64,000 bases of DNA from a phage. Location: sequence record NC_135728.1. The stretch is one strand, 5' to 3'. Position numbers and translations under genes: made by a program. The stretch's first letter is position 1, and the number at the start of each line of letters is the position of its first letter. The notes beneath the pieces were generated by a model. It saw only the letters and a program-made list of their open reading frames with translations. It ran no database searches and was not told the origin of the DNA. Below, in pieces: positions 1-64,000 of the stretch.

Positions 1-63
1 TGAATTGCAGACTTGTTGAACTTATTACAGTTCTTTGCTACCGGGTTGTTCATTAAGCGCTCC

Positions 64-642
64 TCAGCGTTCATAGTAAATCTTATTTAACATTACCTCA
101 TCTTTTGCAGAAAGAATACCGAAATATGCATCACCGAATCTACCTGCAACAACCTCTGCATGATACATCACTTCGTTAATATCGTCAAGAGTGATAACTG
201 GATGACCGTATCTCTCTGAGTATTGTCTCAGAGTGCGATGTAGAGAGTCATCATCATAGGCAGACTTTTTAATATCGCAAACACGACGAATAGCCTTGAT
301 GTCGAAAAACCCTGTACGATACCAACCAAGAAAAAGGTTTCGTGCAGTGTCAACATCTACATCAATACCATCAAGAACCTTATCTACAAGATAGCTGTCA
401 TCCTTTGGACCTGCTTCCTTAGTGCGAATGTAGTTGCCATCTTTTCCAGGTGACAGCTCCTTCTCATCACCAACCTGCATGCCATCATTTGGCGGTGTTA
501 ACCACTTATCCGGATGCTTACGATCACGAGCGTTAGAATGATTACGCTGGAAACCTGGCTTCCACTTGAAAGTTTTCTCCATCTGTTCTTCATTCTGATA
601 ACGTTTTGCAATCTTTTCACGGTCATCTTTGCGTGGACTCAT
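64..642 (-). CDS. hypothetical protein (192 aa)
   Basis: Track ORF; GAGGAGG Shine-Dalgarno about 6 nt upstream of ATG at 642; no recognisable motif. Confidence 0.5.
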   Translation of the reverse strand: MSPRKDDREKIAKRYQNEEQMEKTFKWKPGFQRNHSNARDRKHPDKWLTPPNDGMQVGDEKELSPGKDGNYIRTKEAGPKDDSYLVDKVLDGIDVDVDTARNLFLGWYRTGFFDIKAIRRVCDIKKSAYDDDSLHRTLRQYSERYGHPVITLDDINEVMYHAEVVAGRFGDAYFGILSAKDEVMLNKIYYER

Positions 643-774
643 AGCTGCCTCCTCTTCAAGTTATAGAAAAACTCACTGTATCGCTTTGTAACGAGCTTTT
701 CTATCAAACTGGTGCGATTGCCTTACTTGGTATAGTTTATATGGCTGTGGAGCGATTTAGGGGCCTCATTGTCC

Positions 775-1010
775 GTTTCCACACATAAACTTTATCCAAA
801 CTCGCGCGGGAATCTCTCAACCGACTCCTTACGGCGCTGGCAAGCTTTCGTCGGTGGTCCACATTAGTGCTCGGCCTTTGGCCTGCGCTATCGCTTCGCT
901 CCCACACATGTTAACAGACCTGCATGTATGCACTTCTGTTATTGTGTGCACTATGGAGGCCCGGCATCTCGCCCCTCGTAGGCGAGTGCCAATGAAGGGC
1001 CGACACTACC
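775..1010. other. GC-rich structured non-coding island (candidate ncRNA or regulatory RNA)
   Basis: About 235 nt with no ORF in any frame, visibly GC-richer than its surroundings; nested complementary segments, e.g. GGCCC..CTCGCC-N7-GGCGAG..GGGCC. Confidence 0.3.
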
Positions 1011-1029
1011 TATAGAAAGTAATAAATTT

Positions 1030-1100
1030 AAAACATGGTACTTAGGATCTAGTATATTCTACATAAGTTAAGTATATGTACTTAGTACCATAAGTACTAG
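1030..1100. repeat. AT-rich dyad-symmetry element
   Basis: GATCTAGTA ... TACTAGATC inverted repeat and GTACTTAG direct repeats in an AT-rich stretch. Confidence 0.4.
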
Positions 1101-1145
1101 ATCTTTTATTTTTTATTATTTAGTTATTTTAGTTATATTCTTTAT

Positions 1146-1228
1146 GTGTCCGTATCACGGACAGTTAGTGTCCGTATCACGGACAGATGTGTCCGCGTGA
1201 CGGACAGTAGTGTCCGTATCACGGACAG
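1146..1228. promoter_or_regulatory. array of four tandem palindromic sites TGTCCG-N5-CGGACA (operator- or centromere-like)
   Basis: Four copies at 21-22 bp spacing; three identical (central TATCA), one with central CGTGA. Confidence 0.6.
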
Positions 1229-1302
1229 TTAATAGTTTCTGTTCCATGGTGAACATAAAACATACAAATCCTTATAGTACAGATATTTAAGTTTTTACTG
1301 GT

Positions 1303-1653
1303 CTAACCAGTTGTTGACATTCGAATAACTTCTTCTGGTGGCAAAACTTTGGAAAATGTGCATCTTTTACCTCTCCCTTGTGTGGATGTTTCAACAACTC
1401 CTGCACATTCTAAAGTTTTAACGCACGCTGCTGCTTTTGTTTTCTTTATCCCAACATCTGCTGCAATTTTCCTTGTGCTTGGTGTGAAGTGTGAATTTCC
1501 TCCAAGCTTATACCAGTTGTGCAGGTAGCAGTATACAATCTTGTCATACAAGTCAAGAACAACAACCTCCCCAGTTGTGTCATTCAAAACTTTTGACATA
1601 GATAGTATTTCAAGGGGGACTTTAAGATATAGCAGCTTATCCCCATCTTTCAT
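1303..1653 (-). CDS. small putative DNA-binding protein (HTH-like segment)
   Basis: 116 aa ORF; segment STRKIAADVGIKKTKAAACVKTLECAGVV resembles a helix-turn-helix; adjacent to the palindrome array. Confidence 0.45.
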   Translation of the reverse strand: MKDGDKLLYLKVPLEILSMSKVLNDTTGEVVVLDLYDKIVYCYLHNWYKLGGNSHFTPSTRKIAADVGIKKTKAAACVKTLECAGVVETSTQGRGKRCTFSKVLPPEEVIRMSTTG

Positions 1654-1700
1654 ATCTCCTGATTCTCCTTGTGTGGCAATTTTCTTTAAAATAGCAGGGA

Positions 1701-2255
1701 TTACTCCCTGCTGTCAATATCAAAACTCATTGCAATACGGTATGCCTCTTCTAATGGTAAGAGTCTCCCCCACACATCCCAACCGACATCAAACTGTCTA
1801 CCAAACAACTGTTGTGTGGTTCCGTGAGCATGACCGAACAGTTGGACTGATCCGTGATGCTTTCTGTTCCACGTTGCAAACTGGTAATGGCTCATACAGA
1901 TCAAATTCTTGTTGTGGCGAAGCTCGTAATAATCTACAACCTCATGACCGAACTCTTTCATAATTCTGACAGTCGTCCTTGTGTCATGGTTGCCACGAAC
2001 AAGAATAATATGTCCGTTCAACATATTTAGAATATCTGGAAGTAAGTTGTTGATATTCTTATCATTAGTGCACGCAATATCTCCCAGGTGGAACACAGTG
2101 TCTGCAGGTGACACAACTGAGTTCCACTCGGTGATGATTCCCGCATTCATACTGTCAAGATTGTGATCATATTGAGATCTGTGTTTTTGACATGAATCAA
2201 ACTCCATGACCCGCTGGTGGAGAAAGTGCGTATCGCTTGTTACAAAGTATTTCAT
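1701..2255 (-). CDS. calcineurin-like metallophosphoesterase
   Basis: Motifs SDTHF (DxH), HLGDIxxxN, GNHD, GHxH; start set at MKYFVTSDTHF with GAGGAA RBS (track ORF runs further upstream into the next gene). Confidence 0.75.
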   Translation of the reverse strand: MKYFVTSDTHFLHQRVMEFDSCQKHRSQYDHNLDSMNAGIITEWNSVVSPADTVFHLGDIACTNDKNINNLLPDILNMLNGHIILVRGNHDTRTTVRIMKEFGHEVVDYYELRHNKNLICMSHYQFATWNRKHHGSVQLFGHAHGTTQQLFGRQFDVGWDVWGRLLPLEEAYRIAMSFDIDSRE

Positions 2256-2262
2256 ACATTCC

Positions 2263-2673
2263 TCATTTAAGTTTAATGCAGTTTTTAAGCTGGCGTTCCA
2301 TACGATCCACAACCTTGTCTGGAACATCATGAATGCTTTTATTACCGTGGCGGTTTTCAACCACGATTACGGTATAACTATACCCATGACTGATTGCCAT
2401 GTCAACATATTCCTGCACATGTTTTTCTTTTGTAAACGTATTACTTACCACGATACGGTCGTATCCCATACACATCATATCTTCTACGTTATCTTTGCAC
2501 CATTTTGCTGCGAGTGTTACTTTACTTGCATCCCAGTTGTAATTGCCGTCATCGTCATACCAAAACATGTCATTCTCAAAATGTGGATACAGACCTTCTA
2601 AAGATAGCGCATTTGCCAGTGTTGATTTGCCAGACCCTGGCAGACCACGCACGATATATAGCATTTTAGACAT
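2263..2673 (-). CDS. P-loop kinase, polynucleotide 5'-kinase-like
   Basis: Walker A GLPGSGKST right after the start, as in T4 Pnk kinase domain; GGAGGA RBS before ATG at 2673. Confidence 0.6.
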   Translation of the reverse strand: MSKMLYIVRGLPGSGKSTLANALSLEGLYPHFENDMFWYDDDGNYNWDASKVTLAAKWCKDNVEDMMCMGYDRIVVSNTFTKEKHVQEYVDMAISHGYSYTVIVVENRHGNKSIHDVPDKVVDRMERQLKNCIKLK

Positions 2674-2701
2674 AGCAATCCTCCGTTTTAATTTTAATGA
2701 T

Positions 2702-2730
2702 AGTATACCTAACTGTTTTGTTAATTTCAA
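2702..2730 (-). promoter_or_regulatory. sigma70-like promoter (TTGAAA-17-TATACT) for the kinase/phosphatase operon
   Basis: Read on minus strand just upstream of the kinase RBS. Confidence 0.45.
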
Positions 2731-2791
2731 GTGTTGACACCAGGTTGTTTGTGTGGCAGGATAGACTGACAAAATGACAAATGAGGAACGT

Positions 2792-3709
2792 ATGATGAAG
2801 TATTTTAATGCAGATGACCTAGTAGACAAAGGTCTTGTAACCAGTCGGTATTATCCAGATCTTGGATTAAAGATCTATAAATATGCCAGAAAAGTATTCT
2901 ACAACAATCTGTGGCATTTGTCTCCGCGTTTACTGGAGTGCCGAGGTATTGTTGTTGGCAATGAGGGGAATGTTGTGGCATGGCCTTTCACAAAAGTATT
3001 CAACTTAGGAGAAAACTCCACCAACCTACCGGACAGTAAACTTGTTACTGCGGTAGAGAAAAAGAACGGATTCCTCGGTGTGGTATCATCTCATAAAGGT
3101 GAACTATTGTTCTCAACAACCGGGTCTCTTGATTCCCCATATTGTAACCTCGCAAAAGAAACCATCAGGGAGCAATGTGGTAATTTAGATCTTATCAAGA
3201 AGGTTATGGGCAATGAAAACATGACATTCATGTTTGAAATTTGCCACCCTTCAGATCCGCATATTGTTCAGGAAGATCATGGCGCATATTTGATAGGTTG
3301 CAGATATAATGATTCTGGAATAATGCTACCAGAAGCAGCTTTAGATGGGATTGCCAAATACCTTGGTGCAAAACGTCCTCACACTGTGCGTGAAATTCCG
3401 TTCAGCTATGCAAAAGAATTAGCTGCAGAAACAAGAGGTGAAGGGTATATGATTCGTAAGCCTTACTACCCTTATGATCTGCAGCTGAAGATCAAGTCTC
3501 CATACTATCTGGCACGGAAGGCAGTAATGAGGGGTAAAGCTTGGAAGATTTGGGATGATGATATCTTTAAACGTGTTGACGAAGAGTTTTACGGTATGGT
3601 AAAATTTATTCGTAGCAACTATACAGAAGATGTGTGGAATTGCTTATTAGAGCAGGAGCGTCGTGAGATACTGGACTACTATTTCCACAACGAGGACTAT
3701 ATGCAATGA
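2792..3709 (+). CDS. ATP-dependent RNA ligase-like nucleotidyltransferase (Rnl1/Trl1-type KxNG motif)
   Basis: Motif I-like EKKNGFLGVV (cf. Trl1 KANG, T4 Rnl1 KEDG); GAGGAA RBS before ATG 2792; divergent from the kinase/phosphatase genes. Confidence 0.55.
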   Translation: MMKYFNADDLVDKGLVTSRYYPDLGLKIYKYARKVFYNNLWHLSPRLLECRGIVVGNEGNVVAWPFTKVFNLGENSTNLPDSKLVTAVEKKNGFLGVVSSHKGELLFSTTGSLDSPYCNLAKETIREQCGNLDLIKKVMGNENMTFMFEICHPSDPHIVQEDHGAYLIGCRYNDSGIMLPEAALDGIAKYLGAKRPHTVREIPFSYAKELAAETRGEGYMIRKPYYPYDLQLKIKSPYYLARKAVMRGKAWKIWDDDIFKRVDEEFYGMVKFIRSNYTEDVWNCLLEQERREILDYYFHNEDYMQ

Positions 3710-39997: not shown

Positions 39998-40346
39998 CAC
40001 ACAATTAGTTGCCCGGCTAAAGTGCTGGGAGCACCCATAACACATCTTTCAACTAAATTTCCTACCACCACAATCACTTACCTCCCACACATGACTGTTT
40101 GCTTGTTTAGTGAGCAGTCATGCCTTGACATTCTTGCCTATCCTGATAAAATTAAGTTCTTCTCTTTTCTTTTACCGAGTAATTCGGGTTTTCTGTTCTC
40201 TTCGGTTTGAAGGGGTATGGAGATACACCTGAGTGAACAGGGTGAACAACCGAACCATTGGCTATGGCATTAGCATGGCGAAGCGGACGGGTGACGAAAG
40301 AGGGGCCGGAGGACACCAGTCACTGCCATATGATATATGGGTGATA

Positions 40347-40865
40347 ACCTGAAGAGTCTGAATAAGTGTTTAAGTACCAGTCAGAGGAAAAGGTGAATGG
40401 TAGCCGAAGGGGGAGGGGGGTTACCTGCTTCTGTAAACATGCATCTGAAATACTACTTTAGATAACCTGAACCTGCCTTTCTGACAAATATTCCCTATTA
40501 AACTTGAATTATTTATAGAAAATACCACAACACCACTTAAGTCTTTGATTTTACACACAAATCTTACAGATATTAAACCTCTCTATTTAACATACCTGTA
40601 ACATATACTATACTCCACCTGTCTGATCAATTTCCCCAACTACATCCCCATATTTTCCCTGTCTGTACTACCCCTGCCCCGCCGGGAGTCCCGTCATATC
40701 TGGCTTTCCAGCAAATATCACACCCACAAATATCATCACCTGAAGAGGGTTTCATCCCATAATACATGCCTTACCTGAAGAGCGCTTCATATACCCCGTA
40801 AATTTTTTAATTGACCCCCTCCCCGCCGCCGGAGGGGTTGGCTTTTCCCACACAAACCTGAAGAG
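40347..40865. repeat. dispersed direct repeats of ACCTGAAGAG (4 copies)
   Basis: Copies at about 40347, 40738, 40773, 40856; ACCTGAAC variant at about 40463. Confidence 0.5.
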
Positions 40866-41425
40866 TCAGCCAGAAATATCTGAACAGCCAGTTATACCAC
40901 GATTTTGTGCTTGTCCTACAGGAGTGCTTCCCTGTCAGGAGCCGGTAGCGACTGGAGTGCTGCCAGGCGGACGAAATGGGAATACTTCTCATTCTTATAA
41001 CAATTCTCAAATATCGAGGCAGTGAGGCAAATTAATAGGTGAGGCCGTTCACACAGTGGCACAACATTTGCAACCTATCTTGTGGGATTGAATGAGAATA
41101 CCTATCATTGTGAGAACTGTTATCATTACGGGCAATTTAACATAATACCCATTATGCGCACCACTGGCGATACATACAGGGATTTATAACATGAGTTACT
41201 GTTTACGTATATAACAATTATATTTCTTACTATTTGTGTGGGATATAGTTAGCAGCCGATAGATTAGATATTGACCTGCAGACTTCCAACCGTCTAGACG
41301 TCTAAACGCCCACACAACAAGGTTTATACATACATTACTGAATGTAAACAGGGCCGCAAAAATGCTACCATACAAGATTGTAAATTTTTCATGCAGCACT
41401 TGACAAAGAGGAGAAAAACTTGTCT

Positions 41426-41505
41426 GACACTTTAGACACAATAGTGACATAATATGACACCTTTGACACACTGGACACATTAAACATAATTGACATGCCT
41501 GACTG
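41426..41505. repeat. iteron-like array of GACA(C/T) repeats phased every 9-11 bp
   Basis: Eight copies: GACAC, GACACA, GACAT, GACAC, GACACA, GACACA, GACAT, GACT. Confidence 0.6.
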
Positions 41506-41540
41506 TTTACATAGCTAACTATTTACTAAAAAATGATAAG

Positions 41541-41852
41541 CCATGCCATTCGTTTGCATGATAAAGATTAGCAAGTTAATAATCTTTCGCTGGCTATGCC
41601 AGGTGACCTTTGGTCACCCCTTCGGGTGTTTCTATGACATAATATAAAAGCAGGGCAACTATTAGCAGATCATAGTTGCCTTGCTTGTTAACACCCTTGA
41701 GACGAAGGCTTTGCCTGAGTTTATGTCATGATTAACTAAATACAAGGCAACTATGATCTGATTAATAGTTTGCAGACAAACTATCACGGGGGTGATGGTT
41801 ACTGCTTTTATATTATGTCGCGACTCCGTCGCGCCATGCCATTCGTTTGCAT
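41541..41852. repeat. nested repeat complex: 19-bp direct repeat, 18-bp inverted repeat and internal palindromes
   Basis: CCATGCCATTCGTTTGCAT at 41541 and 41834; GACATAATATAAAAGCAG (41636) inverted at 41802; GGTGACC-TTT-GGTCACC; GGCAACTAT-N9-ATAGTTGCC. Confidence 0.6.
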
Positions 41853-42477
41853 AGTTGCCTTATTGTTACGAATAAAACAATTGCATTGTTAATGATTTCT
41901 TATCTTTCTCTTAGTCATCTAATGATTCCAGTCAGTCTAGTAATGTACAGTAAACATTAGACGACTAAAGATTTCCCTGTTTATGATAACTCACCGTGAT
42001 AATTTCAGGCTGTTTACTAAAAATGTTGACACCTAAGCTGATTTATGTTATGCAGTTTACACGAATAATTATTTTATGCAGGTATTGACTATTCCGTTAT
42101 TCTATGGTTGGAATAAATACTTAGCAGACTATAGAATGGTGAGCGTACGTAAATTCTGAGATCTGGCGGCTATAGTTATACTCGATTTTTCACGTAGAAC
42201 ACGCTTTTGTGAGTGTGTAAGTGTATGACTTATAAAGATTTTTAGTTGTTGACAAGATATTGAAGATGTGCATCAGGTTAAATTTTGTGCAATAGCGGCA
42301 TTACGTGCAATTCTGAGAGAGAAAACGGGTAAAAATGGCCCTGCTACCACAAGATGAAAGATTATGCAATAGTTATTTTTATATGTATATTTGTACAGTA
42401 GGGTTAATTGCTGGCTTGTTGATTATTCCACTTGCCAGGTGGGGCCGTTTGTGGTAGGAGAAATACAGACAAAAAGA

Positions 42478-42508
42478 AAGGGGCCTTTTAAAGCCCCTGA
42501 TAGTTTAG
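42478..42508 (-). terminator. rho-independent terminator of the leftward block
   Basis: On minus strand GGGGC-loop-GCCCC followed by TTTCTTTTT, just past gene 42517-42936. Confidence 0.6.
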
Positions 42509-62207: not shown

Positions 62208-62483
62208 CAATAGTTCAGGTAGGTCGTTAAGCTACCCCGCACCATTACGTGCATAGCCATACGTTTTCACGTAGGATCGGACCATCTCATATTCCTATGA
62301 TAAGCAACCACAGGAATCCTCCCATTTCGACCGCACTTGCTGGTCTACTTCCTTTCGGAATGGCCTCTGAGCGTTCGCTCTTTTGAGCGCTTCGTTGCGG
62401 ATTACCTTGCCATAAGGTTTAGGCTTCCCGCAGTTAAAGAGGTTATTCGACATAGATTACTCTATGAAGCCACAATGTTATTT
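62208..62483 (-). ncRNA. putative group I self-splicing intron (276 nt) in the DNA polymerase gene
   Basis: Interrupts the ORF between the H and D codons of motif C; exon ends in U, intron ends in G; GUGG guide 11 nt into intron can pair with exon CCAU; P-like CUGCGGGAAG, Q-like AAUCCGCAAC, P7 strands GACCA / UGGUC. Confidence 0.65.
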
Positions 62484-64000
62484 ATGGTAATAAATAATAC
62501 GACGAACACCTTCATCGTACCACCCACGCTTCACCATTTGGTGGTGCATGAGTATCCCAACTAAGTCACACAGCGATGCACCACCATTTTGTTGGTATGC
62601 ATTAAGTAAAGAGTGTTTAGATCTGGTCCAGATAGCATGACCATCGAAAGAGTAGATAAACTTCTTACCTGTTGCTTCCCAGAATTTCTCCAGATCCTCT
62701 TTGCGCCCCTTAAGACCGGGGTTGGCATCCCAAAGTGCATCTATTACCCTTTGCCCCAACTCTGGAGAGATGTCCAACATATCTGCAACTTTATCTTTTT
62801 GTGCCCCGTACATAACACCATACGTGATAGGTTTACCGTCGTTACGGGACACCTCTCTGCCTGCTACTTTTGTATATGCCTCGGCATTGTTTTGGTGTGC
62901 GTCTCCGTTACTTACAACATCATAATACAGGCCGTTGTCGAACTCAAAGGCACCCCAAGCCCCGATAAGCTGCTCTAAGTTGGACCCGTCAATACCGATC
63001 TGAAAGTATCCGGGAGGAACACCCCATAGACTACGCATCTCTTTACCCATAACCACTTTAGGAGATGGTTTAGGCATGTTTGCACAAATACTGTGTTTCT
63101 GTCTGGAAGTGTTTGTTAGCCCAGAACTTTTAGCAGGAAGCTTATGGTCAATCTTCAAACGTGGGTGATTAAGAAGACCAGTATCAACCTTATCCTCCTT
63201 GATTGGGTCAAGGACCGATCTGCGGTTTCGCAATGATAACCACAAGACGATATCTTTAGCCATCTCTCCGTTCAATTTTTCAAGATTCGGACACAGGTGT
63301 CCAAACGTATCTTTCAGTTGCGGAGAAGTAATAAGTGCCCTGGCTTTTCTACGTATTTTCCCGAACACTTCCTTTTTAATCCTTTCGGAGTTAGGAAAGC
63401 TTCGGAACTTGTGCACGGTTGTCTGGAACTTAGCATCAGTTTTGTTCCAGAAGTTGATAATTAGGTCACAATACTCTGACTCTAAAAGCTCGTCCATATA
63501 AGCATATACTCGTGCATCAACATCTGCATCAGGTAGAGCTTTCTTCTTGCTGTCTTTAGTTACATCCTTAGTTCTCCACATTGTCGGGAGCCAGCCAGCG
63601 CTGATCAGATACCGCTTAATGTCGTCCTGATTGCTGATTTTCATAGGTATCTTGCAGTCCGGCATTCGCTTCTGCTGTAGATCACTTATTGCCTGATCCA
63701 TCAGCTCTTTAGGCAAAGGGTGTGGTGTGGAAGTTCCCTTAATATAGCCTCTCAAGAAATCAGCCATCTTATCGGGGTCTTTGCAGCCCATCTCTTCACA
63801 CCATTTTATCCCCATCTTGCTGACATCCCCTGTAGAGGTAAATGCTCTCTTAGGCGGGGCTTTGAACTCTAAAGCGCTCATGTCTACAGGATAGCCAAGC
63901 TTATCTTTTAACCATTTCCAACCATTATTAGAGATTGTCCCGTCTTGGTTAAACGGCTTTTCAGGGAACTTGGGCCGCTGAGACATTGACAGCTCTTTTA
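62484..64000 (-). CDS. DNA polymerase family A, exon 1 (partial; N-terminus may lie beyond the window)
   Basis: Motif B-like KPITYGVMYGAQ; ends ...VRRIIYYH (cf. Pol I RMIMQVH-DE); reading frame stays open upstream of the track start at 63986. Confidence 0.8.

Follow-up and report, generated by a model that had tools for sequence, protein, structure and literature searches.

Four phased palindromes beside a winged-helix gene as a candidate iteron-type replication origin of rV5-like phages

In the iteron origins of plasmids, such as RSF1010 oriV, P1 oriR and the origin of pPS10, phased initiator-binding repeats lie beside an A+T-rich tract. These plasmid iterons are usually direct and non-palindromic and are bound by monomers of Rep proteins that contain two winged helices; at RSF1010 oriV the repeats are followed by hairpin-forming single-strand initiation sites. 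The origin of phage lambda, ori-lambda, is located in the middle of gene O and comprises four 19-bp iterons, each an imperfect inverted repeat, which are bound by dimers of the O protein and flanked by A+T-rich DNA, with two iterons plus the A+T tract being sufficient for unwinding (PMC7466680). Here we describe a locus in a stretch of phage DNA of 64,000 nucleotides (sequence record NC_135728.1; the whole stretch is referred to below as the window) at which an array of four palindromes lies between an A+T tract and a gene encoding a winged-helix protein of 116 amino acids (aa). We lean, if only slightly, towards reading this array as initiator-binding sites within a replication origin of rV5-like phages that would be of the iteron type and resemble that of lambda.

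Members of the genus Vequintavirus are virulent phages; those resembling rV5 have been widely isolated and are used in E. coli O157 typing and in phage-therapy cocktails. Judged by its matches, the window is part of a Vequintavirus genome, that of an rV5-like E. coli myophage: positions 600-1800 match 118 phage records over their full length at 80-99% identity, all of them Vequintavirus, the closest being phiWec193/196 (99.3%). The window starts at ~73,066 of phiWec193 and corresponds to ~64,000-128,000 of rV5. To approximate the whole genome (~137 kb), the window was combined with phiWec193, a 99%-identical relative.

Four exact copies of the palindrome TGTCCG-N5-CGGACA occupy positions 1147-1163, 1169-1185, 1190-1206 and 1211-1227, with start-to-start spacings of 22, 21 and 21 bp, as an earlier reading of the letters alone (the original prediction) had claimed. 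The repeat unit is about 19-22 bp in length (GTGTCCG-N5-CGGACAG), with symmetry confined to the 6-bp arms. When up to one mismatch is allowed, an average of 0.06 matches is found in shuffled versions of the 64-kb window that preserve dinucleotides, and none of 100 shuffles reaches four; when three mismatches are allowed, the number of sites in the window is not above chance. No further site with one mismatch or fewer is present in the ~137-kb approximate genome, and a single cluster in ~137 kb fits an origin better than it fits a regulon. The original prediction also placed the array correctly with respect to its neighbours: the stop codon of the 116-aa gene is 75 bp from the nearest site and the next leftward gene lies 504 bp past the array. 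It made no mention of what lies between the array and that next gene, namely an A+T-rich tract and a G+C-rich block. From right to left, the features of the locus are as follows.

1688-1717, minus strand: sigma-70-like promoter of the winged-helix gene, from a promoter scan (TTGACA-18-TATTTT, with TG before the second hexamer)
1303-1653, minus strand: winged-helix gene, 116 aa, orthologue of rV5 gp075; proposed origin-binding protein consisting of a DNA-binding domain only
1232-1302, no strand: 71-bp spacer between gene and array, its array-proximal part variable in alignments
1146-1231, no strand: array of four 21-22-bp units, the proposed iterons, each containing a 17-bp palindrome
1103-1145, no strand: nearly pure A+T tract abutting site 1, with two TTAGTTAT repeats; proposed DNA-unwinding element
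1034-1102, no strand: A+T-rich segment in which two GATC sites occur along with inverted repeats that interleave (ATGGTACTTAG/CTTAGTACCAT with GATCTAGTA/TACTAGATC)
720-1010, no strand: conserved G+C-rich (52-61%) structured element, with hairpins at 820-855 and ~958-1001 and CCACACA motifs at 779 and 902
64-642, minus strand: next leftward gene, 192 aa, taken from the list of open reading frames (ORFs), downstream of the whole non-coding module

The array region is present in all 118 Vequintavirus records, with arms that hardly vary, and a check for relatives that have the same gene order and have lost the array found none. In seven genomes and eight metagenomic contigs (protein 86-91% identical to that of the window), the CGGACA arm never varies, TGCCCG sometimes replaces TGTCCG in the other arm, and nearly all other changes fall within the central 5 bp (TGATA, TAATA, CAATA, TGAGA, TCACG, CCACG and CTACG). 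That the arm sequence itself is conserved, rather than just its pairing, points to recognition by a protein and not to a hairpin. The 25 bp separating the array from the gene are scrambled among relatives and are the most variable stretch of the region. Copy number changes by whole units, between two and four: most genomes have four sites, FFH2 and EdH4 have three—different sites having been lost in each—and YN3 has two. Natural variants with two or three sites fit the sufficiency of two iterons in lambda (PMC7466680). It remains reasonable to suppose, in line with the original prediction, that a dimeric winged-helix protein would bind the sites cooperatively on one face of the helix.

Two observations on the records themselves belong here. 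Three of the eight short-read Logan contigs that carry the gene (L018, L019 and L020) stop inside the array or no more than 12 bp past it, probably as a result of assembly breakage at the repeats, and eighteen 'Campylobacter phage' records (MG0656xx), which are ~97% identical to E. coli Vequintaviruses at the locus, look mislabelled.

The helix-turn-helix-like segment noted earlier in the 116-aa protein is borne out by a match to the Pfam family DUF6945 (PF22182; 29.2 bits over residues 19-91, gathering cut-off 28), which is of the winged-helix class. The match to HTH_36 (PF13730) is 0.1 bits below threshold (24.9 against 25), this family being listed for close relatives in precomputed tables, and there are further sub-threshold matches to LexA, MarR, GntR, CodY, TrmB and other winged-helix families. 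Pfam gave no Rep_3-type domain, and Phage_rep_O is absent from the matches. Among PHROG families the protein matches 12838, 'replication initiation protein', and, less strongly, three other initiator families. Its best solved relative is PDB 4ro3, a 'hypothetical protein' (E 1.7e-5), with staphylococcal RepA_N structures reaching only E ~0.2. The AlphaFold2 model is poor (predicted local distance difference test score 47, shallow alignment); its secondary structure, three helices and then two strands, is consistent with a winged helix.

Close relatives of the protein are few. A search of 5.8 billion proteins returned only four full-length clusters, at 86-98% identity, and one fragment; tblastn against phage genomes gave matches in Vequintavirus only, and no relatives turned up when IMG/VR was scanned. 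Beyond the family, an exhaustive search with HMMER, covering 1.8 billion representatives, gave only weak matches (E ~1e-4), all of them to HTH_36/DUF6945 proteins except for one spurious immunoglobulin-repeat protein, and the N-terminal domains of these distant relatives match 'replication initiation', 'O-like' and 'DnaD-like' PHROGs. That the protein's own PHROG and its remote relatives are initiator families lends support to the origin reading. No papers on DUF6945, or on Vequintavirus transcriptomes bearing on the locus, were found in the literature.

One divergent homologue was found in Klebsiella phage Seu621, a Mydovirus (L008, 1670-2264): a 105-aa DUF6945 protein (28.7 bits) with 33% identity over 54 aa. 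Its gene lies beside its own promoter and a very A+T-rich divergent intergenic region, upstream of genes for NAD salvage, and the region contains a TGCTCA-N3-TGAGCA palindrome at the 5' end of the gene together with two AGATCT sites.

On the other side of the array, the 100 bp from 1046 to 1145 have a G+C content of 19%, the minimum of the ~137-kb genome, and directly abut site 1; the segment at 1034-1102 is conserved in relatives. The promoter at 1688-1717 is that annotated as P76 in rV5. No terminator-like site is present in positions 1-3000, so transcription from this promoter should cross the gene, the array and the A+T tract. A promoter-like sequence on the plus strand (TGAACA-17-TATAGT, 1250-1278), 23 bp from site 4, reads antisense into the 3' end of the gene and is nearer to consensus in divergent relatives (TGGACA, TATAAT). 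In the rV5 genome paper, genes 27-81 are proposed to form one long leftward transcription unit, within which the array lies, and the phage is reported to encode a T7-gp4-like primase-helicase.

Evidence from outside the genus comes from the motif itself. We scanned public collections with the exact pattern of two adjacent sites, that is, 24 specified bases, and matched 12 genome contigs as well as eight unrelated viral ones. The latter (IMG/VR, L027-L034) are of the 36-64 kb class, with 49-70% G+C, and have arrays of 2-7 sites (3-7 in seven of the eight) spaced 20-25 bp apart. In L028, L031, L033 and L034, and in the genome contig L038 from a Treponema metagenome-assembled genome, the array lies inside an ORF of 309-430 aa that matches initiator PHROGs (270, 16167 and 678 'O-like'), the ORF of L038 also reaching HTH_36 at 38 bits. 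The array starts 105-175 residues into the ORF, just past the winged helix, in the six ORFs measured (L029, L031-L034 and L038), and in six of eight loci profiled the 80 nucleotides on the gene-distal side have a G+C content 11-22 points under the locus mean, the proximal side being average. The motif recurs, with the same polarity as in the window, in arrays inside or beside initiator-like genes, an arrangement that agrees with that of ori-lambda (PMC7466680). Aligned by hhalign, the window family and the N-terminal domains of these ORFs match over the winged-helix core with 76% probability (E 2.3e-5). Recurrence of the TGTCCG-N5-CGGACA iteron in unrelated phages would point to a wider and so far unstudied class of initiators and iterons.

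From this anatomy we infer a series of steps in which the 116-aa protein would be produced early from its own sigma-70-like promoter and its dimers would occupy the four palindromic sites. The spacing of two helical turns would place the dimers on one face of the DNA, giving an assembly, bent or wrapped, similar to the O-some of lambda, and this complex would destabilise the adjoining A+T tract. Read-through transcription from the gene promoter could assist, by comparison with transcriptional activation at ori-lambda, and the phage's T7-gp4-like primase-helicase and its polymerase would enter afterwards.

A number of points weigh against an origin at this site. Homology to bona fide initiators is, as far as sequence comparison goes, weak (E ~1e-4 to 1e-5; hhalign 76% and 48%), pairwise phmmer comparison of the protein with the ORFs next to the other arrays gave nothing significant, and the PHROG and RefSeq labels 'replication initiation' are products of inference themselves. 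The module is absent from the syntenic positions in Mydovirus and Seunavirus, the two other genera of the Vequintavirinae examined; a gene found only in Vequintavirus, and not at the syntenic locus of these two genera, implies that the conserved replisome has no universal need for it. The Seu621 homologue looks like an autoregulator, to go by its surroundings. No DnaA box or IHF consensus was found in 600-1700. The cumulative GC skew of the ~137-kb genome has its global minimum at window position 2684, 1.46 kb from the array, and this minimum coincides with a switch in the direction of transcription, which makes it, as evidence for an origin, confounded and weak when taken alone. The locus is 1.5 kb from the point at which leftward and rightward transcription diverge, and in the rV5 genome paper, where an origin was sought by skew analysis, none was defined and only transcription switches were seen. 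Two departures from ori-lambda count on the same side: the array in the window is 75 bp past the stop codon and not within the gene, and the protein, most of whose 116 aa are spanned by the winged helix, lacks a C-terminal domain that recruits a helicase loader. Finally, a repeat-rich region at ~40.0-42.5 kb could equally well hold an origin, or non-coding RNAs.

That region, ~40000-42500, comprises 2.5 kb with no convincing ORF; it is described as 'non-coding' in the rV5 paper and coincides with a convergence of transcription and the GC-skew maximum. Among its repeats are CCCACACA motifs, several copies of CCTGAAGAG and inverted copies of CATGCCATTCGTTTGCAT; promoter-like TTGACA sequences also occur several times. 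At 41424-41496 there are eight direct repeats of (T)GACAC/T, 9-11 bp apart, of which rV5 has five, whole 9-bp units having been lost; their GACAC core is similar to the array's outer half-site (CGGACAC).

Of the alternatives, the one that survives best is that the array is a transcriptional operator. The protein would act through the four sites by repressing, activating or blocking transcription at the boundary between the early leftward genes and a downstream block made up of the structured element, the 192-aa gene, tRNAs and late genes, or, in a variant, would control the plus-strand promoter-like sequence at 1250-1278 and hence antisense transcription into its own gene. We regard this as rather unlikely. 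Winged-helix proteins of ~100 aa with a DNA-binding domain only are typical transcription factors, the weak Pfam matches include LexA, MarR, GntR and CodY, and most GenBank records name the protein 'putative transcriptional regulator'. The location of the array within the leftward unit of rV5 genes 27-81, with no terminator nearby, also fits regulation, as do the closeness of the promoter-like sequence to site 4, its better consensus in divergent relatives, and the position of the Mydovirus homologue at its own promoter with a palindrome at the 5' end. An operator sits badly, however, with there being one cluster of sites in the genome and none on the gene's own promoter. The promoter scan found no sigma-70-like promoter reading leftward from the array, and the abutting A+T tract is a genome extreme of a kind that no promoter needs. 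In other phages the arrays are situated midway along extended initiator-like ORFs, which is not a plausible place for an operator. The two roles are compatible, in that iteron-binding initiators often also regulate. The narrower idea of an autoregulatory operator, which was one of three options in the original prediction, was rejected: the sites (1147-1227) are 3' of the gene, and the gene's own promoter at 1688-1717 has no site and, by eye, no half-site.

Beyond the A+T tract, the G+C-rich block possibly belongs to the same module as the array and is a structured RNA or single-stranded-DNA element. Neither the array nor the A+T tract nor the G+C-rich block was assigned to an Rfam family, whether the whole window was searched at gathering thresholds or 600-1320 with E values up to 10; the sole match in 600-1320 was a sub-threshold one to rli43 (27 bits against a cut-off of 100). 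Partial homologues of the element, at 82-85% identity, are found only in Vequintaviruses, in a few circular E. coli plasmids of 13.2-13.7 kb, in a 39.6-kb relative of these and in a 137.6-kb PLSDB record. This last 'plasmid' (CP057073.1) is suspected of being a mislabelled Vequintavirus genome. Between phage and plasmid, three of the six pairs of helix 820-825/850-855 are changed on both sides (ACCGAC/GTCGGT against GCTGCC/GGCAGC), and the terminal hairpin of the element has one compensatory change; the helix was specified by us and its pairs counted explicitly, RNAalifold alone not having selected it. The element is modular, with CCCACACA motifs between hairpin units and a number of units that differs among plasmids. 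A coding reading of the block (rV5 ORF78, a doubtful 56-aa frame, with two indels that are multiples of 3) was rejected on the grounds that there is no ribosome-binding site, that the stem changes are compensatory and that similarity to the plasmids is confined to the hairpin modules. An exact 10-bp repeat, CCTTGTGTGG, occurs at 1376-1385, inside the winged-helix gene, and at 1667-1676, just upstream of its start; it is the complement of the CCACACA motif, and both copies are opposite in orientation to the two in the G+C-rich block.

The plasmids (L022/L024, NZ_CP020521.1; L023, L025 and L026; plus the 39.6-kb relative) have no PLSDB replicon type. They carry the element, an A+T-rich repeat region and palindromic iterons in the same relative order as the phage, the iterons having a 23-bp period and sequences that differ from plasmid to plasmid. 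The element is upstream of an operon for a protein of 288-306 aa, which in one plasmid reaches HTH_36 at 28.5 bits, and the N-terminal ~116 aa of these proteins align weakly with the whole of the phage protein (48% probability, E 1.8e-4, 25% identity over 89 columns). These parallels on autonomous plasmids count in favour of an origin in the phage. Plasmid genes are annotated as major capsid, baseplate and tape-measure, and their structural proteins match the phage's own at 50% over 209 aa, 45% over 141, 24% over 802 and 25% over 364. No literature on these plasmids, or on satellites of rV5, was found. The 13-kb plasmids may be satellites of rV5-like phages. A bolder suggestion, which we make tentatively and consider doubtful, is that iterons, A+T tract and structured element form a portable origin cassette common to the phages and their satellite plasmids, in which each partner has private winged-helix proteins and iterons and the element is the cis-site through which the helper is used. 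The element could then serve as a single-strand priming or helicase-entry site, or as a packaging signal. If this were true, the plasmids would be plasmid-borne satellites of a virulent myovirus and the satellite-helper relationship one that had gone unrecognised.

The same plasmids bear on a further alternative, in which the 116-aa protein is a small-terminase-like factor and the array, possibly with the structured element, is the pac site for headful packaging. Circular permutation of the genome implies that packaging is of the headful kind and starts at a pac site, and small terminases and lambda gpNu1 bind repeated sites via a winged helix. At the nucleotide level, nothing but the adjoining element was found to be similar to the 13-kb plasmids, which have no terminase among 15 annotated genes and yet have Vequintavirus-like capsid and tail proteins. 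We nevertheless judge a packaging site improbable. The protein matches initiator-type families and not those of terminase small subunits (Pfam, PHROG and NCBIfam), and its gene is separated by ~6 kb, a tRNA cluster and several ORFs from the terminase position inferred from gene order. Moreover, the plasmids carry different iterons and HTH_36 proteins of their own, so that the array is not the shared cis-site; and with no other annotated replication protein or PLSDB replicon type, their iterons are more simply explained as origins.

Very improbable, in our view, is that the array acts as RNA, the read-through transcript forming four hairpins in tandem, each with a 6-bp stem and a loop of 5 nt, that would serve, for instance, in shielding the 3' end of the winged-helix mRNA or as points of processing. 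Each site can fold into a G+C-rich hairpin whose loop varies and whose stem is kept, and transcription from 1688-1717 should cross it. Against this, compensatory variation is missing from the stems, in which it is the sequence of the arms that is kept, and the T-to-C change common in one arm leaves a C-A mismatch in the sense (minus) strand. Why an RNA should need a strict phasing of 21-22 bp is not obvious, arrays in other phages lie inside coding sequence, and no T run follows the array, which is therefore not an intrinsic terminator. A centromere of the parS/parC type was rejected for a virulent phage with no ParA-like partner gene among the neighbours, and with it, as with the autoregulated operator, a second of the three original options becomes unlikely; the third, an initiator-binding site, is the one we favour.

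Of the neighbouring genes, that encoding the 192-aa product (64-642) has a match to PHROG 12226 and none in Pfam; others encode a metallophosphatase, an AAA_33 kinase-like protein and an RNA ligase. A tRNA scan of the window found none. Far from the locus, at 62258-62493 on the minus strand, there is a match to a group I intron (Rfam RF00028, 64.7 bits, E 4e-14).

The origin of an rV5-like phage has never been located, and the present analysis offers a candidate of ~300 bp together with its cognate protein. If the origin reading is true, a lambda-style iteron origin can work with an initiator cut down to its DNA-binding domain, the phage bringing its own primase-helicase. It would also provide an engineering handle, for example for plasmid amplification that depends on the phage.

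How, then, does the locus compare with what is known? With repressor/operator systems of the MarR, GntR and LexA type it has in common a small winged-helix protein and palindromes with 6-bp arms. Such operators overlap the promoter that they regulate and number one or two, whereas the window has four phased sites 3' of the gene and next to an A+T tract that is extreme, and the MarR, GntR and LexA matches of the protein are all below their cut-offs. Like the iteron origins of plasmids, the window has phased repeats and an A+T tract; its sites, in contrast, are palindromic, and the protein has no detected Rep_3-type domain. That the G+C-rich element is an analogue of the single-strand initiation (priming) sites of RSF1010 would be pure conjecture. 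Closer are the arrays of the unrelated phage contigs L027-L034, which have identical 6-bp arms and a 5-bp centre, 20-25-bp spacing and, in most, an A+T-richer gene-distal tract. They differ in being inside an ORF of 309-430 aa, the array of the rV5-like window being outside its gene, and in that their similarity to the window protein is at the profile level only.

Further differences from ori-lambda, in addition to those weighed above, are that no P-like gene is adjacent in the window, that the iterons are unrelated to the TCCCTC/GAGGGA arms of lambda and that the array belongs to a large virulent myovirus, which encodes a primase-helicase and a polymerase of its own. What the two have in common is four dyad sites of 17-19 bp in helical phase with an A+T tract on one side, the order of winged-helix coding region, iterons and A+T tract, and transcription through the sites, which in the window is predicted.

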